Below are positions 1-12,371 of a stretch of 32,443 nucleotides of DNA, one piece after another (position 1 is the first letter of the stretch; each line of letters starts with the position of its first letter). Origin of the DNA: Akkermansia muciniphila (lineage in GTDB: Bacteria; Verrucomicrobiota; Verrucomicrobiia; Limisphaerales; UBA9464); the NCBI GenBank assembly GCA_945861075.1, contig CAMATE010000003.1, positions 1 to 32,443 of the forward strand. Direction: 5' to 3'. Under the pieces are notes generated by a model that was not told where the DNA came from, made no database searches, and saw nothing but the letters and a program-made list of their open reading frames with translations. The position numbers were made by a program, and so were the translations under genes.

Positions 1-433
1 TACGCACCGATGGAGAGAAACTGCCAGCGGCTGCGGTCAAAGCCCCGCCCAAACTGGCATTGGCTCCATAGGCCACCAGGGCCCAACTCCCGCCTCCCAC
101 CAACGTCAAATCCACCAATGCGCCGTCCACACCGCTCACCTGATCCCACATCCGATATTGGATCGTCGCAGTCCCATTGAAATTGGAGTTTGGAACAAAC
201 CGAACCCGATGCTGTTCATCACTCTTGAGCAGCCGCCCTGAAAGGGAAGTCACCCCGGCCAGTGAACTCCAAACACCGCCGCCGTCAGTCGTATACTGCC
301 AGAGGCCATTGGCCAGATCGACCGATGTCACAGCAATGCCCTTCAAAGCACCTACATCGACATCCGAACCCCCACTGGTCAATGCAGCCACGGACGTGCC
401 GGGGTTTGCTGCCGATCCCACATCTTCGGCAAT
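1..433 (-). repeat. Copy 2 of an intragenic duplication of at least 144 codons (copy 1 at 3442-3874)
   Basis: IAEDV..NPGT.V..L...GSDVD.GALKGIA.TS.D..NG.WQYT.DGGG.WSSL.GV...S.RLLK.DE.HRVRF.PN..FNGTATIQYR.WDQVSGVD..LVD.T...G..WALVAYGA.ASLGG recurs at a constant offset of 3441 nt. Confidence 0.9.
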
Positions 434-3400
434 CGCATCCAGGACGAGACCTTGAATGACGGACACGGTGAACTGGCTCAGTTCGGTGTGGTCGTAGACA
501 AAATCACCTTTCGAATCGACGACCAGATAAAGCATCTCGCCAGGCTGCATTTCCACGAGACCGCTTGAGGCCAATGCGACGGAACCACCGCTCACTAAAC
601 TTCCCGAACGCAGGAGCAGGTAACGCGCTGACCCCGCCAAACCCCGCTGGATGAAATAATCAATCCCGTTGGCTGATGAATAGGGCATCCGAAGGGTGAC
701 CCCAAAATTCACCGAAACGGTTTGGTTGGCAGTGTTCTTCCAGCCCACCGCCACCGCTCGAACTGAAGCGTCCGTATTGGCGGGATGGATCACCAACGTC
801 CCCGCAGCGACCGGCGACCGGGCAGAACTCACCCTCTGCACAAAAGGATAGTTATTCAAATGTCCCGAATATCCGTCCCATTGTGGGATGCCGGAAATCA
901 CCTCGTTGCCGCCGGTCTTCCAACTGGTCAACAAGGTCAAACCCGACACGCTGCCTCCCAGGTATTGCCATCGACTGGCGGCAGACTGGAGCGCGGGACC
1001 CTCCACAAAGCCCGTAAATGCATCGTAGGTCGTCGAGATCTCAGAAACCACCGGAGCGTCATTCACCGCATTCACCGTGATGGAAACCGTCGCCACACCA
1101 GAATTCACTGCGCCGTCGTTCACCCGGAAAGTGAAGGAATCACTGCCGTTCATATTCGCATTCGGTGTGTAGGTCAGGTTCGGTGCGATTCCACTCAACA
1201 TCCCCTTCGTCGGCGGCGTCACCACCGCGTAGGTCAATGCTGAACCCTCCACATCCGTGCCCGACAGTGTGATCGGCTTCGCCGTATCTTCATCCGTCGT
1301 CACCGTCTGCGCCGTCGCCACAGGAACATCATTCACCGGGGTGATGGAAACCGACACCGTCGCCACCGAGGAATCCGCTGCACCGTCATTCGCTTTGAAG
1401 GTGAAGGAGTCGCTCCCGTTCGCATTCGCATTCGGCGTATAAGTCAGGTTCGGCGGCGTGCCACTCAAGACGCCCTTTGTCGGCTGCGTCACCACAGCAT
1501 AGGTGAGCGTCGACCCTTCCACATCCGTACCCGCTAACGTGACGAGCTTCGCCGTGTCTTCAAGGGTCGTCACCGTTTGCGCCGTCGCGACTGGCGCGTC
1601 ATTCACCGGGACAAAACGCAGCACTCGCGAAGCCGATACGGTCGAAGTCCCGTCAAACGCGCTGACGGTCAGTGTGCGATCAGAAGAGTTATTGGCAGCC
1701 CCCAAATAGGTCACGCTACCAGCCGTCGCAAAATAGGAGTTCAGATTGGCCACCGAGCCAACGAACGTGCGGGCAATGCTCGAGCCCCCAAGAGTGATAC
1801 CGGTGCCGGGATTTCCGGTGATCACGCCATCCGAAGCCGACAGCGTCACCGTCAGGGAGGCACTGTCCGTATCTTGAATCAGCGGAGATTCGAAGATGAC
1901 GTTCCCAGCCACATCTTCCGTCAACATGGATGCTGAGGTGGGGCCTCGGACATACACTTCAAACTTCAATGAGCGATTCAAACCCGTTGAGTTCTGGCAG
2001 CAACCAATGTAGTCGCCGGCCGACCAATTAACTCGGTCCATTCCCAAGCCACCGCTGACATCGTTGGACCCCTCGTTGCCGTTGGGAAAAAGACCGCCTC
2101 CGTTTTCGTTCCAACCAAAACCGAATCGAACACGGTTGTTGCCGACAGTGCTCACGTAGTTGAAGCCAAAAAAACGCACGTCGGTCTGGGTGGAAAACAC
2201 CCCGGCTCCGGCCGCCCGATAGGGAGTCGTCGCAACCGCGTCTCGGATGAAGATCTTCTCTTCCCCAGCGAAGAGTTCTCGCAGAGTTTTACCGGTGTAA
2301 TTCCCTTGAGTTGGCCTTCCAGTATAAGCGGTCGTGTTGGCCGGCGTCGGCATGGATTCCTTCCAAACAAATCCATAAGATTGTCCCGTGATCGCCCCAC
2401 CGGCCGTGGCCTCGGGAAAGATCACCAGGATTTCGCTGGCCGGCATGGAGTTGAAGACTTCGAACTTGGCGTCTTCGTTAAATGTGTCATTCCGACGAGT
2501 GGCAGCGGTGTTGAGGGTGTTTGCCGTCGTCCAGTAGCTTGAAGAATAATTGAAGGTGGAGCCGGTGTTGGCGCCTTTCATGGCCAACATCCACCCTCCC
2601 CCGAGGGCATCGTTCATCAAGCAATAAACCGGAACGGATGTGCCGTTGAAAAAGAGTGAGTAAACCCCGTCAGCAGTGGCTCCTGTTGAGGCTTTCAGGG
2701 TCGATGCATTCAAGATCGCTGTGTCCGAGCCTGTTATCGTCACTTGAGGCGCGTCGTTGACGGGGGTGACGGTGAGGGTCGCGGTCGCGGCGTTGATCGA
2801 GTAGGAAGCGCTCGCATCGATGTCGAGATACGTGGTTCCAATATTGACCAACGGGTAGTGTCCAGAGCCGCCGACTTGGGACCCTGCCAACGCCAAGACC
2901 TGAGCAGCACTCAACCGCGCCCAGAGGGCCATGGAGGAAGGCACATAGCTGTTCTGGGCTCCTCCGGCGCCTCCCATCACGAGCCCTGTTTTCTTTTCGT
3001 TCCCCGTTCCATGATCGAGGTAGAGGGCCTTGAAAGTCTGATTATCCGGAAACTGTCCGTAATCGAGTTGCGGGTTGCTCCCATTGTTTACGACCAACCC
3101 ATACACCCCACCGTAACCGGCCCCGAAACTCTTGTTTCTCAGGTACATCTGAGCGGGCATGTCCGGTGTTCCGATCAGTGTTCGCACTGTGACTAATGAT
3201 TGGTCTGGATGCGTGCTGCCAACCGCGAATGAATTCAGGAGGTTGCCTTGGGAGAATATCGGAGGGCTCGTGGCCGATCCGTCAAAGCTCATGCCCGACG
3301 CATTGGGCAGAGCAAATGCGACAGCATGTTTGTAGGAAGCGATACCCCCCACCGGAAAGCCTCCACCGGCAACGGTCCAAGACATGGCCAACTCGGAACT

Positions 3401-6400
3401 GCTCTTCAGGAGACTGAGGGCTGGCAGCACCGCGGAACCTGAACGCACCACCGATGAAAAGGTTCCCGTGGCGGCATTCAGGAACCCTCCCAGGCTGGCA
3501 TCGGCTCCATAAGCCACCAAAGCCCACGCTCGCCCGTCGATCGATGTCACATCCACCAAGGAGGCATCGACTCCACTGACCTGATCCCAGGCGCGGTATT
3601 GAATGGTGGCTGTGCCATTGAAATCAGGGTTCGGCAAAAACCGCACACGATGAAGTTCATCCCCTTTGAGCAATCGAGCCGAAGCCGTGCTTACGCCGGA
3701 CAACGAACTCCAGTTCCCCCCCCCGTCGATGGTGTATTGCCAAGAACCGTTGCTAGCATCAATCGACGTGATCGCGATGCCCTTGAGGGCACCGGCGTCA
3801 ACGTCTGAACCGGCGTTCGCAAGCTCCAAAACCGCCGTACCCGGATTATCCGCCAGAGCCACATCTTCCGCGATCGAGGTCAACGCCGCGTTTCCGGCCA
3901 CCGGGGAGTCGTTCACCGGAGCCAATGTCATGGTGACCGTAGCCTCAGCCGACCAAGCAGATCCATCGAACGCCTTCACGCTGAAGGTCTTGGCTCCATA
4001 TTCATTGGCCGCTGGCGTATAAGTCAAAGAACCCAACTGGGCCACCGGGATCACTTGGGCGGCACTTACCGCGGAGCCGGCCAAACTCAAGACTCCCGTC
4101 TCTGGCAGGGATACGATCTGGATGCTGCTCATCGCAACCCCTTCCGGGTCGGTGTAGAACGGTGAAAATATGCCGGATGAGAAGGTGAGAGAGGTGTCTT
4201 CGGTTCCGGAAACACCCACGGCAGCAAGGGTCGGTGGCATTTGAACGGTGAACCATGAACTGAAAGCCGAGCTGTACAGCGAAGCAAACGAGAAGTCGGC
4301 CCGGATCGAGTAGTACTGCCCACCAACAAATGTCAGCCTTGAATAGGAACTGGTAGCTACGTTCGACAAGGCGGACTGAATCTCGAATTGTGCCCACGTG
4401 GAGTCAGCCCCGATCAAGGCGGCGGCACCGCTGTAGATGTCTAGCAACTGGATCGTCGTTACCTGATTCGGATTGATTCCCGATCCGGCGAATTGCCGCA
4501 TATCAATTGCCAGCAGGCTCCGTCCCGCGCCTCGACCATTTGGAATCACGTAGGCCCACTCCACCGCACCTCCAGTGGACGAAGCCTTGTAGCCGCTGCT
4601 GAACCTTAGCCGGTAAGGATTGTTGAGGACACCCGTCATCGTTAGGTCAGCGAAAGTAGCAAAGCCGTTGATGGCATTGACGGTCAAAGCACCACTCAAG
4701 GCACCGCCAGTGCCGGAATCGATGGACACCGTGACAGCTCCTGTGCTGGCAGTCCGGTTCCCCTGGCTATCACGAATTTCAACTACCGGCGGCGTGGCCA
4801 TCAGCACACCGCTGACCACGCCTGATGGCTGCGTCGCCACGGCTAGTTGGGTCGACAACGGCACATCGATCTGGACGGAAAGAGCTCCGCTAGCCATCGC
4901 TACCCCGTCCGACACAGTGAGTGTGTAGACCTCCGATGCAGAGATTAGGAGTGGGTTGATACCTGCCGCCGAGGGCGCAAACGAGTAGGCTCCGGTCGCG
5001 GTGTTGAGGGTCAGGGTTCCAAAGGAGCCCGTCTTGGCCACTTGGCCTGCGGTGGCGGTCGCCGCGCCGCCTTGGATTCCATACACCAGCGTGGTGTTCG
5101 GATCGGGGTCGGTTCCGCTGACAGAACCAGAAATCGCCGGAAAAACCGTCTGGGTGGCAGAACCCGTGACAATGAGCGAGCGAGCCGATGACGTTGCGCT
5201 GTAGCGGACAATGACCACTCCCGATCCCCCCGCCCCACCCAATCCCTCCGGATCACCACCACCGCCACCACCGCCGGAGTTCGGCGTCCCGGCCGCACCC
5301 TGAGCCCAGTTTGAACGAGCGCCCGCTCCGCCTCCACCTGCACCTCCATTACCCCCGAACGTGGTCGGAAATCCCGTATTGTTGTTGGCACCACCACCAC
5401 CACCTCCGCCGTAGAAGATTGAACTCCCTGAAATGGAATGGCTGACACCCGAGCCGCCGTTACCACCGGGTGAGGAAGCGGTGGCGTAGCCATAACCATC
5501 GGCTCCCCAAAGTCCACGAGTGCCCACTCCACCTGCGCCACCACCGCCTCCGCCGGCAACATAACCATCGTTGGCCGCACCATCGGCTCCCCGAAACCCT
5601 TGGGTCGCCGCTCCGGAGGCCGCGGAGGTATCGCCGCCGGTGCCACCACTCGACGCACCAGATAAACCCGCTCCCCGAAATGCGCCACCGCCACCGCCAC
5701 CGAACGCCATCAACGAACCAAAGCTCGAGGAGCCTCCGTTAGCGCCGGCGAGAACCGTGCCGTTCAACGTTCCCCCGGCTCCTCCCGCTCCGACAGTGAC
5801 CGTGACCGATTGAGCGGCCGTCACCGAGAAACTGTTTTGATAAACAACTCCACCGGCGCCGCCACCGCCACTGCCACCACCCCCGCCGCTGCCTACCACC
5901 AAAACCTCCACAGCCCCGGATACCGCCGGCACAAAACTCCCACTCTGCCGAAAGGTATGAATGGTTGAGCCGCCGATTCGAGTCACCTCGCCCCCAGCAC
6001 TTTCTGCGACGAACCCTAAAGTCGGGGGCACGTTGGACATAGAAGCATGGACGAGGACGGGATCTTCGAGGGTGGTGTAAAAGCGCAGCTCGCCAATGGT
6101 TCCCCGAAACCAGCGATTCGAGGTTTCCCGTTCTCGGCCAAACCGAATCAAGTTGGCGACAATCCCCGATCCTCCATCGCTCACCAAGCTGCCTTTCAAG
6201 ACGCCATCGACATAGAACCGGGCTGTCTGGTCACCCACGTCTGAGTCCGACCAGGTCAGCATCATCGTATGAATCGCGCCATCGACTACATTCACCGCAG
6301 ACGGGGTCGAGATCGCTCCATTGAAAAACGCACGAGCCAAGCCGTCGGTGCCGATGGTTAGGCCGAAATCATTCGGGGCGCCGGGGGCTTCCGCGTTGAT

Positions 6401-6844
6401 GGGCCCCGGATATTGCCAGTGATTGCCGTCACTGCCGGTTGCACCTTGGGTGGCTTTGAAGAGTGCGACAATCGTGACGGTTTTCTGTCCGGCGATCGGG
6501 TTGTTGGCCGACGTGACTTCGAAGTAGTCATCGACGCCGTCGAAAACGATTCCCCCGGAGGAGGCACTGCCACCAAATTGGCTGGTGGCTTTGATCGGAC
6601 TTCCATAGGCAGCCGCGATCTTTCCTCCGACCCGGTCCACCCAGTGAGCGCTTCCGCCCGCCCAATCATCTGCAACCCAGCGCGCCACCGGATCGCCTGC
6701 GGTGAGTCGGATCGCGCCCTGAAACAGAATCAGAGCCGGAACCAAGACCGAAAAGATCAGCCGGCGAACGAGGCGAAGCACCCAAATTGTCCACGCGCAC
6801 GCACGATGCGTCTCCCCCTTCGGTCGGGAAGAAGGGACACCCAT
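1..6844 (-). CDS. Giant secreted multidomain adhesin-like protein, 3'-truncated by the window edge (at least 2281 aa): signal peptide, LamG-like, Gly-rich, VCBS/Ig/cadherin-like (tandem-95) repeats, fibrinogen-like and jelly-roll domains
   Basis: Hand translation from ATG 6844-6842 (MGVPSSRPK...RRLIFSVLVPALILFQGAIRLTA) finds no stop before position 1. Motifs include FDGVDDYF...ARFYVDG...FRGTIGELRFY (LamG), TIHTF...VEVLVVGSGGGGG...GGSGVVIVRY (Gly-rich), repeated VNDAP/TxEDT/TDVEG/LTYTPNAN (cadherin-like) and VYCLMNDALGGGWMLAMK (fibrinogen-like). It is absent from the ORF track because it has no stop in the window. Confidence 0.93.
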   Translation of the reverse strand, partial: MGVPSSRPKGETHRACAWTIWVLRLVRRLIFSVLVPALILFQGAIRLTAGDPVARWVADDWAGGSAHWVDRVGGKIAAAYGSPIKATSQFGGSASSGGIVFDGVDDYFEVTSANNPIAGQKTVTIVALFKATQGATGSDGNHWQYPGPINAEAPGAPNDFGLTIGTDGLARAFFNGAISTPSAVNVVDGAIHTMMLTWSDSDVGDQTARFYVDGVLKGSLVSDGGSGIVANLIRFGRERETSNRWFRGTIGELRFYTTLEDPVLVHASMSNVPPTLGFVAESAGGEVTRIGGSTIHTFRQSGSFVPAVSGAVEVLVVGSGGGGGSGGGGAGGVVYQNSFSVTAAQSVTVTVGAGGAGGTLNGTVLAGANGGSSSFGSLMAFGGGGGGAFRGAGLSGASSGGTGGDTSAASGAATQGFRGADGAANDGYVAGGGGGGAGGVGTRGLWGADGYGYATASSPGGNGGSGVSHSISGSSIFYGGGGGGGANNNTGFPTTFGGNGGAGGGGAGARSNWAQGAAGTPNSGGGGGGGDPEGLGGAGGSGVVIVRYSATSSARSLIVTGSATQTVFPAISGSVSGTDPDPNTTLVYGIQGGAATATAGQVAKTGSFGTLTLNTATGAYSFAPSAAGINPLLISASEVYTLTVSDGVAMASGALSVQIDVPLSTQLAVATQPSGVVSGVLMATPPVVEIRDSQGNRTASTGAVTVSIDSGTGGALSGALTVNAINGFATFADLTMTGVLNNPYRLRFSSGYKASSTGGAVEWAYVIPNGRGAGRSLLAIDMRQFAGSGINPNQVTTIQLLDIYSGAAALIGADSTWAQFEIQSALSNVATSSYSRLTFVGGQYYSIRADFSFASLYSSAFSSWFTVQMPPTLAAVGVSGTEDTSLTFSSGIFSPFYTDPEGVAMSSIQIVSLPETGVLSLAGSAVSAAQVIPVAQLGSLTYTPAANEYGAKTFSVKAFDGSAWSAEATVTMTLAPVNDSPVAGNAALTSIAEDVALADNPGTAVLELANAGSDVDAGALKGIAITSIDASNGSWQYTIDGGGNWSSLSGVSTASARLLKGDELHRVRFLPNPDFNGTATIQYRAWDQVSGVDASLVDVTSIDGRAWALVAYGADASLGGFLNAATGTFSSVVRSGSAVLPALSLLKSSSELAMSWTVAGGGFPVGGIASYKHAVAFALPNASGMSFDGSATSPPIFSQGNLLNSFAVGSTHPDQSLVTVRTLIGTPDMPAQMYLRNKSFGAGYGGVYGLVVNNGSNPQLDYGQFPDNQTFKALYLDHGTGNEKKTGLVMGGAGGAQNSYVPSSMALWARLSAAQVLALAGSQVGGSGHYPLVNIGTTYLDIDASASYSINAATATLTVTPVNDAPQVTITGSDTAILNASTLKASTGATADGVYSLFFNGTSVPVYCLMNDALGGGWMLAMKGANTGSTFNYSSSYWTTANTLNTAATRRNDTFNEDAKFEVFNSMPASEILVIFPEATAGGAITGQSYGFVWKESMPTPANTTAYTGRPTQGNYTGKTLRELFAGEEKIFIRDAVATTPYRAAGAGVFSTQTDVRFFGFNYVSTVGNNRVRFGFGWNENGGGLFPNGNEGSNDVSGGLGMDRVNWSAGDYIGCCQNSTGLNRSLKFEVYVRGPTSASMLTEDVAGNVIFESPLIQDTDSASLTVTLSASDGVITGNPGTGITLGGSSIARTFVGSVANLNSYFATAGSVTYLGAANNSSDRTLTVSAFDGTSTVSASRVLRFVPVNDAPVATAQTVTTLEDTAKLVTLAGTDVEGSTLTYAVVTQPTKGVLSGTPPNLTYTPNANANGSDSFTFKANDGAADSSVATVSVSITPVNDVPVATAQTVTTDEDTAKPITLSGTDVEGSALTYAVVTPPTKGMLSGIAPNLTYTPNANMNGSDSFTFRVNDGAVNSGVATVSITVNAVNDAPVVSEISTTYDAFTGFVEGPALQSAASRWQYLGGSVSGLTLLTSWKTGGNEVISGIPQWDGYSGHLNNYPFVQRVSSARSPVAAGTLVIHPANTDASVRAVAVGWKNTANQTVSVNFGVTLRMPYSSANGIDYFIQRGLAGSARYLLLRSGSLVSGGSVALASSGLVEMQPGEMLYLVVDSKGDFVYDHTELSQFTVSVIQGLVLDAIAEDVGSAANPGTSVAALTSGGSDVDVGALKGIAVTSVDLANGLWQYTTDGGGVWSSLAGVTSLSGRLLKSDEQHRVRFVPNSNFNGTATIQYRMWDQVSGVDGALVDLTLVGGGSWALVAYGANASLGGALTAAAGSFSPSVR
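1059..1610 (-). repeat. Two tandem 270-bp (90-aa) cadherin-like/tandem-95 Ig repeats
   Basis: The anchor tcattcaccg (PVND/AVND) occurs at 1059, 1329 and 1599, an exact 270-nt period. Units read VND.PVATAQTVTT.EDTAK..TL.GTDVEGS.LTYAVVT.PTKG.LSG..PNLTYTPNAN.NGSDSFTF..NDGA. Confidence 0.9.
3442..3874 (-). repeat. Copy 1 of the intragenic duplication (copy 2 at 1-433)
   Basis: Colinear protein and DNA similarity with 1-433, with no net indel. Confidence 0.9.
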
Positions 6845-6889
6845 GGGTTTGAACGCGCAGGCAGACATTCGAAGGCCTGAGGCGACTCA

Positions 6890-6980
6890 ACTGTCGTTTA
6901 AGTCTCAGACAACCGGAATCGTTACAAAATTACATTAAACCATCAAAAGAATAGTCTTACTCTATTTATATCTATTTTCA
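6890..6980. promoter_or_regulatory. AT-rich divergent control region upstream of the giant adhesin
   Basis: Strongly AT-rich patch in high-GC DNA. TCTATTT direct repeat at 6961-6967 and 6971-6977, and TTACA at 6922 and 6930. Confidence 0.45.
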
Positions 6981-7185
6981 GACCCAGCCCGTCTGGAATA
7001 TCGACTCCAACGGAGTCTCCGAAGCTGGCTGGAATCCCAGCATCCGACACTCTGAGCCTCCCAAAATCGAGCACAGCCGAGATCAGCGACACCCAACAAT
7101 TTCCCGGCAACGGCCTACTGGCCGGATTCGAAATCCACAGCCCCAAAGCGCTTGCCCGGATTCGATGGGCAGGAAGACTGACGGC

Positions 7186-8814
7186 ATGCCGAACGACGCG
7201 TCGCAGCCCCATCCCGACTCCAGACCCACGGGGATTCGCTGGTGGCCGGCTGGGGTGATTTTGGGGGTGATGGTCTTGGCCATGGGGGTGGTTCAATCGA
7301 TCGGGGAGTTTCCCTTTCAGCGACGCAACCTCATTTGCCTGGGTATCGCGGGTGGCGCCGCCGGATTGCTGCTCTTTTGGTGGCTTTTCCTGTCACGGGC
7401 CCGGTGGACCTTGCGCTTGGCCGGAATCGCCGGGATCGCGCTGCTGGCAGGATTGGCTCGCCTGACCTTACGCATCCGCGGTGTGACCGGCGACCTGATC
7501 CCCATCGTCGAAACCCGCTGGGCGCAACCCTCACCGCCATCCCCCAACGGCAGCTCGGTCGGAAACTCAACGGGAAGCTCCATCGGGAGCTTGGCCAACC
7601 CCACGGGCGCCGCTTCAGCGTCGGTCGCACGTTCCAACTCCACCACGCGTTTAGCCGGTGATTACCCTCAATTTCTGGGATTGAATCGCAACGGTATCGT
7701 TGACGGACCCGCATTCCAAACCAATTGGGCCCAGTTTCCACCCCACTTGCTGTGGCGGCAGTCGGTCGGAGGCGCATGGTCGGGATTTTCGGTGGTGGGC
7801 GATCTGGCGGTGACTCAGGAACAATACGGTGAGGAGGAGTGTGTCGTAGCCCGACATATCGTTAACGGTAATATTGTTTGGAAAACCGGTAATCCAGCCC
7901 GTTATTTCACCCCGATTGCCGGAGAAGGCCCCCGCAGTTCGCCCACGATGGCTCCAGGGCGTGTCGTCACCCTCGGAGCGCGGGGTTGGCTTCAGGTTCT
8001 GGATTTGCGAACGGGCCAGCGGCTTTGGGGCACCAATATTTTGGATTTCGCCCAAGCAGGCATGCCGGAATGGGGCCTTTCGGGCTCTCCATTGGTGATT
8101 TCCAATCGAGTTATCGTTAGCGCCGGAGGGCGAGACGGACGCTCGTTGCTCATGTGGCATTTGGAGTCCGGGCAACTCTTGGCCTCGGGAGGTTCTTCCT
8201 CGGCGCAATACAGTTCGCCTTACCTGACCGAATTGGCCGGAGTGCCCCAGATTCTGCAGTTTAACCATCGTGAGATCAGCTCCCACGATCCCGTGACGGC
8301 TCAGGTGCTCTGGAACCGGCCCTTCGGCATCCACTTCCCTCTCGTGGCCAACCCGGTTCAAGTTTCCTCCAACCGCGTGTTTTTGAGCGCGGGTTATGGG
8401 GTGGGAGCGGAGCTGTTGGAGATTTCGAAGAACCCGTCAGGCACACTCGCGGCTCGACCGGTTTGGACTTCGAAACGCATGAAGGCCAAGTTTTCCAACC
8501 CCTACTTCCGCGACGGGTTTCTGTATGGGTTGGATGATGGAATCCTGGCCTGCCTGGACGCGAAGGACGGCTCACAGCGTTGGAAGGAGGGCCGGCACGG
8601 TCATGGTCAAGGACTGCTGGTGGGCGACGTGTATTTGCTCATGGCCGAACAAGGCGAACTGCTGCTCTTGCGCCCCACCCCCGAAGGCCCGGGTGAATTG
8701 GCCCGACTGAAGGTCTTCGACGACAAGACGTGGAACCCCATCGCTCTGGCCGGAGACCTCCTACTGTTGCGCAACGACCGCGAGGCCGCCTGCTACCGAT
8801 TGGCGGTGCGCTGA
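7186..8814 (+). CDS. Membrane-anchored PQQ-binding-like (BamB-family) beta-propeller protein
   Basis: About three N-terminal hydrophobic helices, a Ser/Gly linker, then DYPQFLGLNRNG, LLWRQSVGGAWSG, GEGPRSSP, WGLSGSPL, YSSP and KTWNPIALAGDLLLLRN, as in PVC PQQ_2 propellers. Start is 7186 (or 7165). Confidence 0.88.
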   Translation: MPNDASQPHPDSRPTGIRWWPAGVILGVMVLAMGVVQSIGEFPFQRRNLICLGIAGGAAGLLLFWWLFLSRARWTLRLAGIAGIALLAGLARLTLRIRGVTGDLIPIVETRWAQPSPPSPNGSSVGNSTGSSIGSLANPTGAASASVARSNSTTRLAGDYPQFLGLNRNGIVDGPAFQTNWAQFPPHLLWRQSVGGAWSGFSVVGDLAVTQEQYGEEECVVARHIVNGNIVWKTGNPARYFTPIAGEGPRSSPTMAPGRVVTLGARGWLQVLDLRTGQRLWGTNILDFAQAGMPEWGLSGSPLVISNRVIVSAGGRDGRSLLMWHLESGQLLASGGSSSAQYSSPYLTELAGVPQILQFNHREISSHDPVTAQVLWNRPFGIHFPLVANPVQVSSNRVFLSAGYGVGAELLEISKNPSGTLAARPVWTSKRMKAKFSNPYFRDGFLYGLDDGILACLDAKDGSQRWKEGRHGHGQGLLVGDVYLLMAEQGELLLLRPTPEGPGELARLKVFDDKTWNPIALAGDLLLLRNDREAACYRLAVR

Positions 8815-8844: not shown

Positions 8845-9624
8845 TCAGGGGATTTTAATCCCGTAGAAGCACTGCCACTGACTTTGGCTCGATCCCAATG
8901 TCACGTTGCGGGACGAGATCCATTGGACATGGCCGTCCTCGAAGAGAAAGTTGCCTCCATCGGGAATCCCACGCTGGCCGGCATGGTTGGCTGTCTTGGT
9001 GAGGCGTCCGTTCTCGACCATCATCCACTTGATCCCGGGGTTCCACATGTTGGTGGAGTGGGCCCCATGTCCCTGAAGGCGGTCGATGAGGATGGGAGCG
9101 GCGGAAAACTCGCCACCCATCTTCTTGCGGTAATGCCAGTCACCCAAACCGTCGGAGTTGTAATCCCAGGCACCATCCACGCGGCCTGGGAGAAAGAAAT
9201 ACCCAATGAAAACAGGCCGGCTGCTGTTCGCTCCGTAGCTCCAGGCGTCGGCCTGTCGGTTCCATTGATCGGTTGGGCAAAAGAGAACGTGATTGGCCGC
9301 CTTGCGGTCGTTCCGCGACTTTGGGGCCGCATTCTTCATCAGGTACTTGTCCGTGAAGTTCCGGGCACTGGATCCCAGCCAACTCAGCCCGGTTCCGTCA
9401 GTGTTGTCGGGAAACCGGTCCTCATTGTCATTGGCATAGAGGTTCACCGCGATCCCCCATTGCCGCTGATTGCTGCTGCATAAGGTCTTGATAGCCGTGG
9501 ATCGAGCCCGAGCCAGCGCCGGCAGGAGCATACCCGCCAAGATAGCGATGATGGCGATCACCACCAGCAGCTCAATGAGCGTGAAGGCGGTTGATCGTGA
9601 GGCTGAAATCCGGCGCGGGTTCAT
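8845..9624 (-). CDS. Prepilin-type N-terminal cleavage/methylation protein with C-terminal H-X9-DG motif (DUF1559-like, PVC minor pilin/pseudopilin)
   Basis: [44 protein letters not shown] and NH...[13 protein letters not shown]. Confidence 0.92.
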
Positions 9625-9707: not shown

Positions 9708-12371
9708 TCACTCGCCGGCCACAGTCACCCGGTAAAAACGAGTCGGCCCGTCGGGCAGCGGAATGGATGCCTCGGAATCGACGGATTTTGCCCGTGGATC
9801 ATTTTCCTCCACCTCCAACCGGCTCCACTGCGCCGTCGGCGTCATATCCGAAGCCCACTGCACCTCGAATCGCCGGCCCGCCCATCGGGGAAACCGCAGA
9901 ACATATTGGGTACCCTCCCGAAGGAGGGATGGTTTCCAAAGACGCTTCGGATTCAGCGGGCCCTCGCGCAGCAAGTACTCGGTGAAATTATCCAATCCGT
10001 CGCCGTCCGGATCCATGGCCTGCAAACGCAAGCTCTCCCAAGGCTCCGGCATCCACTGCGTCGCCCATTGGGTGTAGCCCTGACGACCCGGCAACTCATC
10101 CACGATCCAGCGCCGCAGCAAATCCACACCTTCCCGCTGAATCTCGGAGGAGCCCAACGGGGGCATGTGGAGGGCTCCCAAGGTGGAGATCCGGAGAAAG
10201 AGGGACGAGTTCTCGGGGTGACCCGGATCGATCAAATAATCCCCACTGCCCAGTCCGGAAGCGGACGATCGGACTCCAATCAACCCCATCTGATCCAAGG
10301 CGGTGCCGATGCGGGCATCCCAAGGCATCCGGGTCAATCCGCCCGGCTGGTGACAGGAGGCGCAGTTGGAATCCAAATAGGCTCTCACCCGACGCTCCAA
10401 CGTCTGGGTTTCGTCGGATGGAGCGACCAGAGCCGGCATTTGATGGGTACGAACCAATGGTGTCGAAAAGTAGCCAGCCGCCGACCAGTCATTCAGTTGG
10501 GAGAGTATCTGCACCCCGTGACGAACGACGCGATTGAGTTGGGCCGTGTTGAAGCCTGCAGGCCCGCCATTGGCCGAATTGTGGCAGGACAAGCATTCGT
10601 TCCGCGCCGGAAACCGCCAGTTCTGGGTAACCAACTCGGTTGGGGTCCAAGCATAGAACATGGCATTGGCCCCGTCGTCCGGAACCAGATCCGCGTCGGT
10701 CCCCTCATCATTCCACCGGTAGCTGGCCCCAGACACACCGTTGGTGGTCTGGATGAGGATCCGGGTTTCCATGGGGAAAAGCAGGGTTTTTGGACGATAA
10801 TACGGACGGTCAAAGTGCTTCACCCAGATCGTCCCCATCGGGAAGCTCCACGGTCCCTCACGACGGAAAGTCATGGTCGAGTCGTCGCCCGGGAGGGCAA
10901 ACCAACGACGCTTGAGGGCGTAATCGGACCAGAAGGGGGCATTGATCTCGTAGGGAACCAATCCAGGGCGAGGCGTCAGGGATTGAACATTTTCGAACAA
11001 GCCGGTCTCCGACAACCGCTCGGGCCAGACCTCCCCCAACACCGGGCGGTGAACCAAGCGGAAAATCCGCCCTGAACCGGAAGTCATCAACACCGATCCA
11101 TCCCGAGGGTCAGCACCAAAGGATATCACACCCGGCAAGTTGGCGATCCAGGTGACCTCGGCTTCACCCGATTGGCCGGGTCGCAGCACCGCAATGTCTC
11201 CGGACCAATCCGCGAAGAGGTAAGTGCCATCCAGTTCGGGATAGAATGTTCCCCGGTAGAAACGGCTTCCCGTGATGGCTGTGCGGCCGGAAAAGTGGCT
11301 GTACTCGAACTCAGGAGAAGTCATTCCTTCGACCGGCGGATTGGCAACCGAGATGGTTCCTTCCCACCAAGGCCATCCGTAGTTGGCCCCGGGACGGATT
11401 CGGTTGACCTCTTCACGCGAACCAAAGCCCACGTCGTTGCACCACAATTCACCCGTCTTGGAATCGAAGCTGAACTGCCACGGATTGCGCATGCCCAACG
11501 CATAGAACTCGGTGCGCAGGGATGCGGGATTGGCGCCGTTCCAGATCCTCTGGTTCCCGACGACGTATTGCCGAATGCCGACAAACGGGTTGTCGGCGGG
11601 AATGGAGTAAGCAGCCGGGTTGACACCGAACCCGGGATTCGGCGGGAGATTTCCCGGCCGTCGATCCACGTCGATCCTCAGGATGCCTCCAAAAAATCCG
11701 GCATCGAGGCGTTGAGCCACGCGGTTGGCACTCAAACTCCCATCTCCGACGGACAGATATAAATAGCCGTCGGGTCCAAAGGCCAAACATCCCGCGTTGT
11801 GGTTGGGACCCGGGTCTTCCTGATGGAACAAAACCACCTCGGATGCCGGGTCCGGGAGTCCATTGCCACCGGGTGGGACGGTGAAGCGCGACAACCGATT
11901 GAAAGACTGCGTCAGTCCGCCAGCCCCTTCCTTGGAGGAATAATAGACAAAGACCCATCCATTGGTCTGGAACTGCGGATGGAAAGCCATTCCCAGAAGG
12001 CCGGATTCTTGCTCAAAGAAAACCCGTTCCGAGAGATCCAAAAACAAGCGGCTTTTCGGAGCACTGGACAGCGAAACCTCGAAGGCGATGCCGCCCATGC
12101 CGACCAAGATAATGCGGTTGGTCTCTCCCGGAGGAACCGCAAAACCGAGAATACCCGGAATGGATTCCAAGGTGGGGAACGCGTCCTCCAGTCGCCACGG
12201 TCCTTGAACTGGGTTTCGCGGAACCTTCCCGCCATCCCAGAACTGCCGGTCCAGAGCGCTCAGCGATCCAACGCTCACCCATAAGCAAAAACCAAGAACC
12301 AGCAACCTGCTCAGCAAGAAGGATCCCGCTGGGTTTTTCCTACTGAAACCGGCACTCGAATACCCCCCCAT
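9708..12371 (-). CDS. Secreted PQQ-dependent sugar dehydrogenase (GSDH)-like propeller fused to a diheme c-type cytochrome (SO2930-like) with a verrucomicrobial C-terminal tail
   Basis: Signal-like N-terminus. GSDH motifs ESGLLGMAFHPQF, NHNAGCLAFGPDGYLYLSVGDG and GMRNPWQFSFD. Cytochrome region PYEINAPFWSDYALKRRW, CLSCH (10581-10595), CASCH (10350-10364) and MPPLG. Ends with DPDGDGLDNFTEY...RFYRVTV. Confidence 0.9.
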   Translation of the reverse strand: MGGYSSAGFSRKNPAGSFLLSRLLVLGFCLWVSVGSLSALDRQFWDGGKVPRNPVQGPWRLEDAFPTLESIPGILGFAVPPGETNRIILVGMGGIAFEVSLSSAPKSRLFLDLSERVFFEQESGLLGMAFHPQFQTNGWVFVYYSSKEGAGGLTQSFNRLSRFTVPPGGNGLPDPASEVVLFHQEDPGPNHNAGCLAFGPDGYLYLSVGDGSLSANRVAQRLDAGFFGGILRIDVDRRPGNLPPNPGFGVNPAAYSIPADNPFVGIRQYVVGNQRIWNGANPASLRTEFYALGMRNPWQFSFDSKTGELWCNDVGFGSREEVNRIRPGANYGWPWWEGTISVANPPVEGMTSPEFEYSHFSGRTAITGSRFYRGTFYPELDGTYLFADWSGDIAVLRPGQSGEAEVTWIANLPGVISFGADPRDGSVLMTSGSGRIFRLVHRPVLGEVWPERLSETGLFENVQSLTPRPGLVPYEINAPFWSDYALKRRWFALPGDDSTMTFRREGPWSFPMGTIWVKHFDRPYYRPKTLLFPMETRILIQTTNGVSGASYRWNDEGTDADLVPDDGANAMFYAWTPTELVTQNWRFPARNECLSCHNSANGGPAGFNTAQLNRVVRHGVQILSQLNDWSAAGYFSTPLVRTHQMPALVAPSDETQTLERRVRAYLDSNCASCHQPGGLTRMPWDARIGTALDQMGLIGVRSSASGLGSGDYLIDPGHPENSSLFLRISTLGALHMPPLGSSEIQREGVDLLRRWIVDELPGRQGYTQWATQWMPEPWESLRLQAMDPDGDGLDNFTEYLLREGPLNPKRLWKPSLLREGTQYVLRFPRWAGRRFEVQWASDMTPTAQWSRLEVEENDPRAKSVDSEASIPLPDGPTRFYRVTVAGE

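Follow-up and report, generated by a model that had tools for sequence, protein, structure and literature searches.

The gene at the beginning of the 32,443-nucleotide stretch of DNA analysed here (the window; contig CAMATE010000003.1, positions 1 to 32,443, deposited as Akkermansia muciniphila) raises the question of how a putative giant adhesin carries its candidate binding domains: inserted inside the immunoglobulin (Ig)-like units of its stalk, or lined up between them. The open reading frame (ORF) lies on the minus strand, window 2..6868, and has 2289 amino acids (aa) counted from the first ATG, with an open 3' end according to the ORF listing and the translation. The window begins at base 1 of its contig, C3 of a 340-contig metagenome-assembled genome (MAG), and the gene is therefore truncated by the assembly. 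A sequence-only reading of the same DNA had called for an ORF of at least 2281 aa, in which six foreign domains all interrupt Ig-like units. The six are present, their coordinates having been accurate within a few residues, and the spacing from VNDAP to T-x-ED in uninterrupted units, put at about 8 aa, is 8 residues. Interruption of an Ig-like unit is found for inserts 2, 3 and 6, while inserts 1, 4 and 5 stand at unit junctions. That reading was largely right in what it observed and half right in its interpretation.

We conclude, with a probability of about 0.72, that the frame encodes the N-terminal 2289 residues of a giant adhesin from a freshwater Verrucomicrobiota MAG, with three nested modules, three that are most likely in tandem, and lectin-like passengers. 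The ORF, its domain boundaries, the three intradomain insertions, the fibrinogen-like fold and the swapping of cassettes are direct results. The stalk would consist of cadherin-like and Big-like beta-sandwich units and bear at least six non-stalk modules. Inserts 2 and 3 (ins2 and ins3) and a second copy of ins3 would be nested in the loop before the last strand of the host unit, making the host a "split domain". Since such an insert enters and leaves its host by one loop, it would sit beside the stalk with its two ends close together. A surface fibre of this kind could, judging from the lectin-like folds, bind glycans multivalently, be it on particles, on algae or on other cells. We only infer that the modules project sideways, that they bind glycans and that the protein serves adhesion, as well as its route of export.

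The features of the protein are, from its N-terminus:

6695..6868, minus: N-terminal basic stretch and hydrophobic segment (..RLVRRLIFSVLVPALILFQGAIRLTA), a putative Sec-type signal peptide or anchor (read from the translation)
6074..6538, minus: Laminin_G_3 (ConA-like) domain, aa 111-265 (Pfam PF13385, 30.4 bits, cut-off 27.6)
aa 279-284, minus: VNDAP-like linker NVPPTL ahead of Gly_rich_2 (translation)
5201..5935, minus: Gly_rich_2 domain (PF21722), aa 312-556 (Pfam, 69.5 bits, cut-off 24.3)
4868..5197, minus: VCBS-like unit, complete alone, aa 558-667 (alignment to the P0044 unit; TIGR01965, 16.7 bits)
4592..4864, minus: Big-like (invasin/intimin-type) Ig unit, strands up to ..YRLRFSS, aa 669-759 (AlphaFold, predicted local distance difference test (pLDDT) 70-87; VIA; own profile)
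4295..4591, minus: ins2, an insert of about 100 aa in the Big-like unit, aa 760-858 (comparison with L032)
4265..4294, minus: apparent displaced last strand of the Big-like unit (..SSAFSSWFTVQ), aa 859-868 (aligned to L032 SSAFTVQ)
3914..4264, minus: cadherin-like unit (Big_9/Cadherin_5), aa 869-985 (Pfam; pLDDT 76-92)
3533..3916, minus: body of WQY1, a cadherin-like unit, strands A to F, aa 985-1112 (profile positions 1-129 of 151, 128 bits)
2813..3532, minus: ins3, about 240 aa, nested in WQY1, "YCDM..GGGW" family, aa 1113-1352 (profile split; VIA)
2747..2812, minus: displaced last strand of WQY1 and VNDAP junction, aa 1353-1374 (profile positions 130-151, i-E 3.7e-5)
1946..2734, minus: predicted fibrinogen-related/intelectin-like lectin domain, aa 1379-1641 (AlphaFold pLDDT about 90; match to 4wmq_A)
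1604..1945, minus: LTEDV-type cadherin-like unit, uninterrupted, aa 1642-1755 (alignment to the canonical unit; AlphaFold pLDDT low)
1034..1603, minus: two tandem-95/Big_9 units, aa 1756-1945 (Pfam Big_9, 142 bits; NF012211, 180.8 bits)
458..1033, minus: jelly-roll (CBM/MAM-like beta-sandwich), aa 1946-2137 (VIA Z 8-9.8, model residues 622-788)
110..457, minus: body of WQY2, a second cadherin-like unit, aa 2138-2253 (profile positions 13-131, 117.5 bits)
2..109, minus: start of a second ins3-type insert, its first 36 residues, aa 2254-2289, ended by the contig (65% identity to ins3 residues 2-35)

The stalk repeats score 142.1 bits with PF17963, 100.8 bits with PF17892 and 180.8 bits with NF012211 (cut-off 90). 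Export is probably Sec-dependent. Close orthologs occur in three genomes of the same genus (G001-G003), with identities of 95%, 75% and 76% over WQY1 and ins3; each of the three open frames (3216, 3581 and 3020 aa) runs off its contig. This arrangement is also seen in independent assemblies (L027, L029, L030, L031, L006, P0002 and P0003), which excludes an assembly chimera.

Modules inserted ahead of a last strand

Insert ins3 lies inside WQY1, ahead of its last strand. A profile of the WQY unit, having 151 positions and built from 21 uninterrupted units of five unrelated proteins, matches the native residues 975-1385 in two collinear pieces. The first comprises positions 1-129 and falls on aa 985-1112 (128 bits); the second, positions 130-151, falls on aa 1353-1374 (i-E 3.7e-5). 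Between positions 129 and 130 lie the 240 residues of ins3. The second WQY unit of G003 is split at the same site (profile positions 13-122, then 111-151, i-E 3e-7), where a Laminin_G_3 domain has been inserted in full (E 1.1e-25, covering positions 1-151 of 151 of its profile), and the second WQY unit of P0003 is uninterrupted (positions 16-151). The orphan strand AFS..TxTV..VNDAP that follows ins3 is kept in all orthologs and in an 18-protein cassette described below. Upon removal of the insert, as the sequence-only reading had proposed, WQY1 scores the same against the unit profile (138.5 bits, compared to 137.6 bits for the native sequence, which was already matched as two collinear pieces). 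The deletion is uninformative for WQY1, and the collinear split is the informative result.

An AlphaFold2 model of this region (model 1; 726 residues, 31 alignment rows, mean pLDDT 68) has pLDDT values of 57-88 in the WQY1 body and 55-91 in ins3. An eight-residue strand assigned by DSSP at model residues 702-709, with a pLDDT of about 80, is situated between linkers below 50. WQY1 is covered by seven of the 50 VIA rows. Six of these (intimin D00-D0, MfFcnA4, protocadherin gamma-A4, SraP, BbgIII and cadherin-23) extend to model residue 708-718, and the seventh stops at 436; the ends of the rows would fit a displaced strand that completes the WQY1 sandwich. A Foldseek search with the whole 726-residue model returned generic multi-Ig matches only. 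An earlier alignment, A2 (126 rows), was discarded, as MAFFT had laid the fibrinogen-like family onto the columns of ins3. A Rickettsiales record, L015 (31% identity), was rejected as a relative, being composed of He_PIG repeats; it is nevertheless one row of the model 1 alignment.

The sixth insert is the beginning of a second ins3-type copy, nested ahead of a last strand in the same manner. WQY2 matches profile positions 13-131 and is followed by GGGSWALVAYGANASLGG.., the start of ins3, and then by the end of the contig. The stretch formed by WQY2 and this insert is 68% identical to the start of WQY1 and ins3.

Insert ins2 appears to be nested in the Big-like unit, again ahead of the last strand, as judged by comparison with L032 alone. 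This metagenome locus carries a 73%-identical ortholog that shares with the window protein the Big-like unit, its last strand and the unit behind it, and lacks ins2. The uninterrupted sequence in L032 reads ..YRLKFSSVGLILATSSAFTVQLPPTLAAIGVSGTED, where the window has ..YRLRFSSGYKASS, about 100 aa, and then LYSSAFSSWFTVQMPPTLAAVGVSGTED. The insert is kept in G001, G002, L030, L031, L006, P0002, P0003, P0044 and P0055; G003 is without the Big-like unit and ins2 entirely. VIA matches of the Big-like unit are the Runt domain, intimin and InvE (Z 6.3-8.1). Insert ins2 has no Pfam or NCBIfam match, and the ESM Atlas pointed only weakly to DUF6623 (score 0.91; recognition 1817, short of the mark of 2300).

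Yet another, third type of Ig-like host unit takes an insert ahead of its last strand; it is seen in L029, an ortholog of G002 (aa 2393-2759 of the open frame), and in P0044 (from aa 2346). Here an LTEDV-type unit is broken after ..TLTTAVVDGT by about 250 aa and resumes with ..STTSTIYLTPVNDAP. The insert in the LTEDV-type unit of G002 belongs to no Pfam family.

Modules behind VNDAP junctions

The Gly_rich_2, fibrinogen-like and jelly-roll modules each begin 2-7 residues after VNDAP, and the sequence-only reading took this to be one shared insertion site following the host unit's first strand. The units behind the first two modules do not bear this out. Positions 8-112 of the canonical 119-aa VCBS-type unit of P0044 align to aa 558-667, so that the whole VCBS-like unit stands after the Gly-rich domain, with only "TL" before it. 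Positions 7-107 of the canonical LTEDV-type unit of G002 align to aa 1640-1741; the LTEDV-type unit is thus complete after the fibrinogen-like domain. Both units are complete from 2-3 residues past VNDAP. LTEDV-type units directly follow non-cadherin domains in P0007 and P0019, and the fibrinogen-like domain is found elsewhere standing alone, on a pilin N-terminus, and between two FN3 domains.

The jelly-roll is less clear-cut. The WQY2 profile is split collinearly around it, with positions 13-131 after it and positions 1-12 before it, the latter at 2.3 bits, which is not significant. In all 18 cassette proteins the jelly-roll is preceded by N(R/D)AP and six further residues, whether the domain upstream is a leucine-rich repeat (LRR) region (13 proteins), LamG (two) or a cadherin-type unit (three). 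A constant leader of this kind would be compatible with a split after the first strand. In L005 (translation residues 600-830), however, the order is unlike that of the window: an LTEDV-type unit is followed by a jelly-roll with the same leader and then by a complete LTEDV-type unit, with no WQY unit, suggesting that the leader is perhaps part of the jelly-roll itself. In a second AlphaFold model (model 2; 69 alignment rows, with a mean pLDDT of 64), none of the three junctions reaches a value of 50, and neither do the LTEDV unit, the jelly-roll module over roughly its first 60 residues, or the incomplete WQY2.

Nesting of all six modules in Ig-like units thus draws on the common start behind VNDAP, the collinear split and constant leader at the jelly-roll, and the RTX adhesins, whose split extenders project ligand-binding domains after the first strand according to the accessible parts of the sources cited below. 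It is nonetheless an unlikely arrangement, since nothing is missing from the units behind the Gly-rich and fibrinogen-like domains, both the fibrinogen-like and the jelly-roll modules also stand in tandem with other partners, and the models give the junctions low confidence. Taken module by module, nesting is improbable for the Gly-rich and the fibrinogen-like domains and only somewhat short of even odds for the jelly-roll; plain tandem order is the more likely arrangement of the three. The opposite extreme, a string of linear domains in which what look like split units would be truncated Ig domains with unrelated linkers behind them, could appeal to the ins2 region and its displaced strand, which AlphaFold does not place with confidence. 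It is very improbable in view of the collinear profile split at 129/130, the natural variants L032 and G003, the conserved orphan strand after ins3 and the VIA alignment ranges reaching model residue 708-718. The structure prediction proposed as a check for discontinuous Ig folds thus gave a consistent model for WQY1 and ins3, and values below 50 for the ins2 strand and the VNDAP junctions.

Between these two extremes, with three modules nested and three most likely in tandem, a wider generalization can be put forward tentatively: that whole domains generally dock in the loop ahead of the last strand in at least three types of scaffold of this Verrucomicrobial protein family (Big-like, WQY and LTEDV-type), and that one WQY unit is perhaps split twice, giving a "bivalent lectin cassette" that recombines between giant proteins having no other relationship. 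The double split would place a CBM-like jelly-roll after the first strand and an intelectin-like lectin before the last strand, and the product would be a self-contained cassette of three domains. If true, this arrangement, which we consider rather unlikely, would be a natural plug-and-play display system outside the RTX and type I secretion system (T1SS) world.

The passenger domains and their exchange

The domain at aa 1379-1641 is predicted to have the fibrinogen-related/intelectin fold, in keeping with its earlier description as fibrinogen-like. Its model (residues 28..290) superimposes on human intelectin-1 (4wmq_A) with Z 14.7 and an rmsd of 3.7, 218 of 283 residues being aligned at 14% identity; the next unrelated row has Z 10.4. 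The sequence support for this assignment is weak. A literature search for intelectin-like domains in bacteria gave no relevant entry among the records listed. A phmmer search against the PDB gave the fibrinogen-related domains (FReDs) of tenascin-R and angiopoietin at E 0.14-0.24 only, and a profile of the family matches 7e1e_A, "Serum lectin", at E 7.6e-4. The 211 small homologs of this domain, 145-464 aa long, consist essentially of it, and most of the 120 that were listed have no Pfam domain on record. One of the small proteins, P0218 (399 aa), carries an entire fibrinogen/intelectin-like domain fused to a type IV pilin N-terminus (PF07963; start ..KGFTLLEILLVIAAIGILAAI..), which could make it a pilin tipped with a lectin.

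The ins3 family has 90 cluster representatives at E <= 1e-3, and 64 at <= 1e-10, among 1.84 billion. The N-boundary is present in 60 of the 90 matches: 33 start with YCDM.TDGGG, 17 are a Cys-less TYVD variant, four are nested in WQY units and six are other; the remaining 30 are fragments. The window's ins3 is without the N-terminal Cys-containing subdomain, having VDVTSIDGRAW where its relatives have VYCDMTTDGGGW. The jelly-roll had been recognized as such from the letters, and its model is a beta-sandwich with matches of the MAM, carbohydrate-binding module (CBM4, 22, 27, 36 and 51), PirA and GOLD types (Z 8-9.8). It belongs to no Pfam family, and homologs are few among small proteins (2/806 candidates), with one extra genome locus. 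P0126, P0127, P0130 and P0148 are small secreted proteins with an ins3-type and a Gly_rich_2 domain (E 2.4e-12 for Gly_rich_2 in P0127), showing that two passenger types of the giant protein also co-occur in small proteins.

Cassettes are swapped or absent at the same sites among orthologs, as the interchangeability claimed for the modules would have it. Laminin_G_3 takes the place of an ins3-type domain at one and the same site, and ins2 occurs in some orthologs but not in others. Behind the shared tandem-95 junction and its VNDAP, the window has the jelly-roll and WQY2, G001 and P0002 have Gly-rich and VCBS, and P0003 has another domain. Jelly-roll, WQY and ins3 stand back to back in 18 of the 120 relatives listed, otherwise with LRR, RCC1, LamG or NHL domains; two further relatives with the cassette are N-terminally cut copies. 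Among 61 related genomes, ins3 is found in five, the window's included (4/23 in the same genus, 0/13 in other genera of the family and 0/24 in other families of the order), counts that are limited by the incompleteness of the MAGs.

Intelectins bind microbial glycans. The passengers of the window protein look lectin-like in their models and look like binding modules, as had been proposed. Cadherins are stiffened by Ca2+ at the junctions of their domains, and by analogy a similar stiffening at the VNDAP junctions is plausible here. The same architecture might serve another purpose, as a glycan-capturing, nutrient-foraging or cell-envelope scaffold of a polysaccharide-degrading Verrucomicrobium. 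Passengers resembling lectins and CBMs are also typical of glycan-foraging proteins, and relatives combine the cassettes with RCC1, LRR, NHL and sulfatase-modifying domains in their Pfam lists. We consider this role unlikely, as Pfam and NCBIfam scans found no catalytic domain in the 2289 aa and the long repetitive cadherin-like stalk is the hallmark of fibrillar adhesins, as the accessible part of bioRxiv 10.1101/2025.09.30.679566 also describes.

Several results weigh against the giant adhesin with nested lectin-like modules. The MAG has a completeness of 86% and a contamination of 7%, and the C-terminus, which would bear the anchor or secretion signal, is absent from the window protein and from G001-G003. 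The pairing of the displaced strand with WQY1 is read from DSSP, pLDDT and alignment ranges only. Insert ins2 and its displaced strand have a pLDDT of 26-49, the strand not being placed, and our profile built from 12 Big units in tandem matches the native sequence over positions 2-98 of its 110 and misses the displaced strand. The fibrinogen-like domain scores 23.7 bits (E 3.5e-5) with the YCDxxxxGGGW signature (NCBIfam GGGWT_bact, NF040941), below the cut-off of 30. For ins3 the match to intelectin-1 is moderate (Z 7.7, 177 residues aligned, model residues 439-659), in a range that is common for the tool, and hhalign finds no significant similarity between the ins3 and fibrinogen-like families (probability 2%).

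The natural variants provide controls, namely one unit with and without its insert and one site with two unrelated domains. They mark insertion-tolerant loops and could guide domain mapping and construct design. Two abundant, unannotated bacterial fibrinogen/intelectin-like families, with 211 small homologs and 90 cluster representatives, become candidate lectins. For annotation, split units of this sort escape profile searches, their last strand being placed hundreds of residues further downstream.

Gene context and comparison with known systems

When the whole MAG was searched by tblastn with the protein, no contig was found to continue the gene or, within it, the second ins3 copy. Other tandem-95/cadherin-like giant genes of the MAG lie on C29 (about 200-8800, minus) and C137 (about 160-1800, plus); they are 40-58% identical to the window repeat units and both run to contig ends. 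A further cadherin-like gene was found on C102 by the same search. The ORFs adjoining the gene encode a PQQ_2/BamB-like beta-propeller (window 7165-8814, plus), a protein with an N-terminal methylation (pilin-like) motif (8845-9624, minus) and an 887-aa protein with GSDH and cytochrome c (9708-12371, minus). Upstream of the orthologs are ORFs of 884-927 aa with the C-terminal sequence ..RFYRV(T/I)VAG(D/E), and complete giant relatives have the similar tails ..RFYRLVQP and ..RFYKFRWIP; such tails may be a shared C-terminal sorting motif. The public titles of genomes of this genus disagree with one another ("Verrucomicrobiota bacterium", "Akkermansia muciniphila", "uncultured Verrucomicrobia bacterium"), and another close relative is titled "Prosthecobacter debontii". 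The species labels of these records look unreliable.

The sequence-only reading had seen in the sideways display of modules a design unlike that of the usual tip adhesins. The display principle is, however, already known from RTX adhesins, as the accessible parts of PMC12077191, PMC10865825 and bioRxiv 10.1101/2025.09.30.679566 describe it. There, CBM, vWFA, peptide-binding and RTX-like domains are projected off the axis of the fibre by Ig-like domains that are "split", the split either following the first strand or coming directly ahead of the final two. According to these portions, AhLap of Aeromonas hydrophila, FrhA of Vibrio cholerae and MpIBP of Marinomonas primoryensis have in common with the window protein discontinuous Ig-like units with budding domains, several per protein. 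A split extender with a projecting domain is found here in WQY1 with ins3, by the profile split and a consistent AlphaFold model, and in the Big-like unit with ins2, by L032.

In other respects the proteins differ. The N-terminus of the window protein is a signal-like segment and a LamG domain; searches of the whole protein and of aa 1-290 with NCBIfam and Pfam found no retention module there, and Laminin_G_3 only. The RTX repeat PF00353 is absent from the 2289 aa and from the Pfam domains listed for P0003, P0044, P0055 and P0065, the nearest among the longer relatives, and there is no T1SS component among the 10 neighbouring ORFs scanned. The passengers begin near the N-terminus and are spread along the stalk, whereas RTX adhesins, as far as the portions seen of these sources go, have a C-terminal ligand-binding region. 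Fibrinogen/intelectin-like and Gly_rich_2 passengers are not among the types described in those portions of PMC12077191, PMC10865825 and bioRxiv 10.1101/2025.09.30.679566. The host is a member of the Verrucomicrobiota, in contrast to the Proteobacteria of the RTX adhesins. Membership in the RTX adhesin family is not supported; by analogy, the protein would resemble the RTX ligand-binding region in its working.

The domain at aa 1379-1641 shares with intelectins and FReD lectins (PDB 4WMQ) its predicted fold and, apparently, the motif GVY..VYC.M....GGGW. Unlike intelectins, it is bacterial and embedded in a giant stalk protein, and is 14% identical. The stalk units, the VNDAP junctions and the W-Q-Y..RAWDQ..AFS..VNDAP unit are shared with the tandem-95/Big_9/cadherin-like giant repeat proteins ("VCBS", DUF4347), and the WQY unit is uninterrupted in P0005, P0025, P0039 and P0054 and in loci L007-L020. 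Those proteins have contiguous units, whereas the window protein and a small Verrucomicrobial clade carry a domain of 100-250 aa in the loop ahead of the last strand. The window protein is thus a non-RTX, Verrucomicrobial variant of a known principle, extending split-domain display beyond the proteobacterial RTX adhesins in which, going by the accessible parts of the sources, it has been documented so far.

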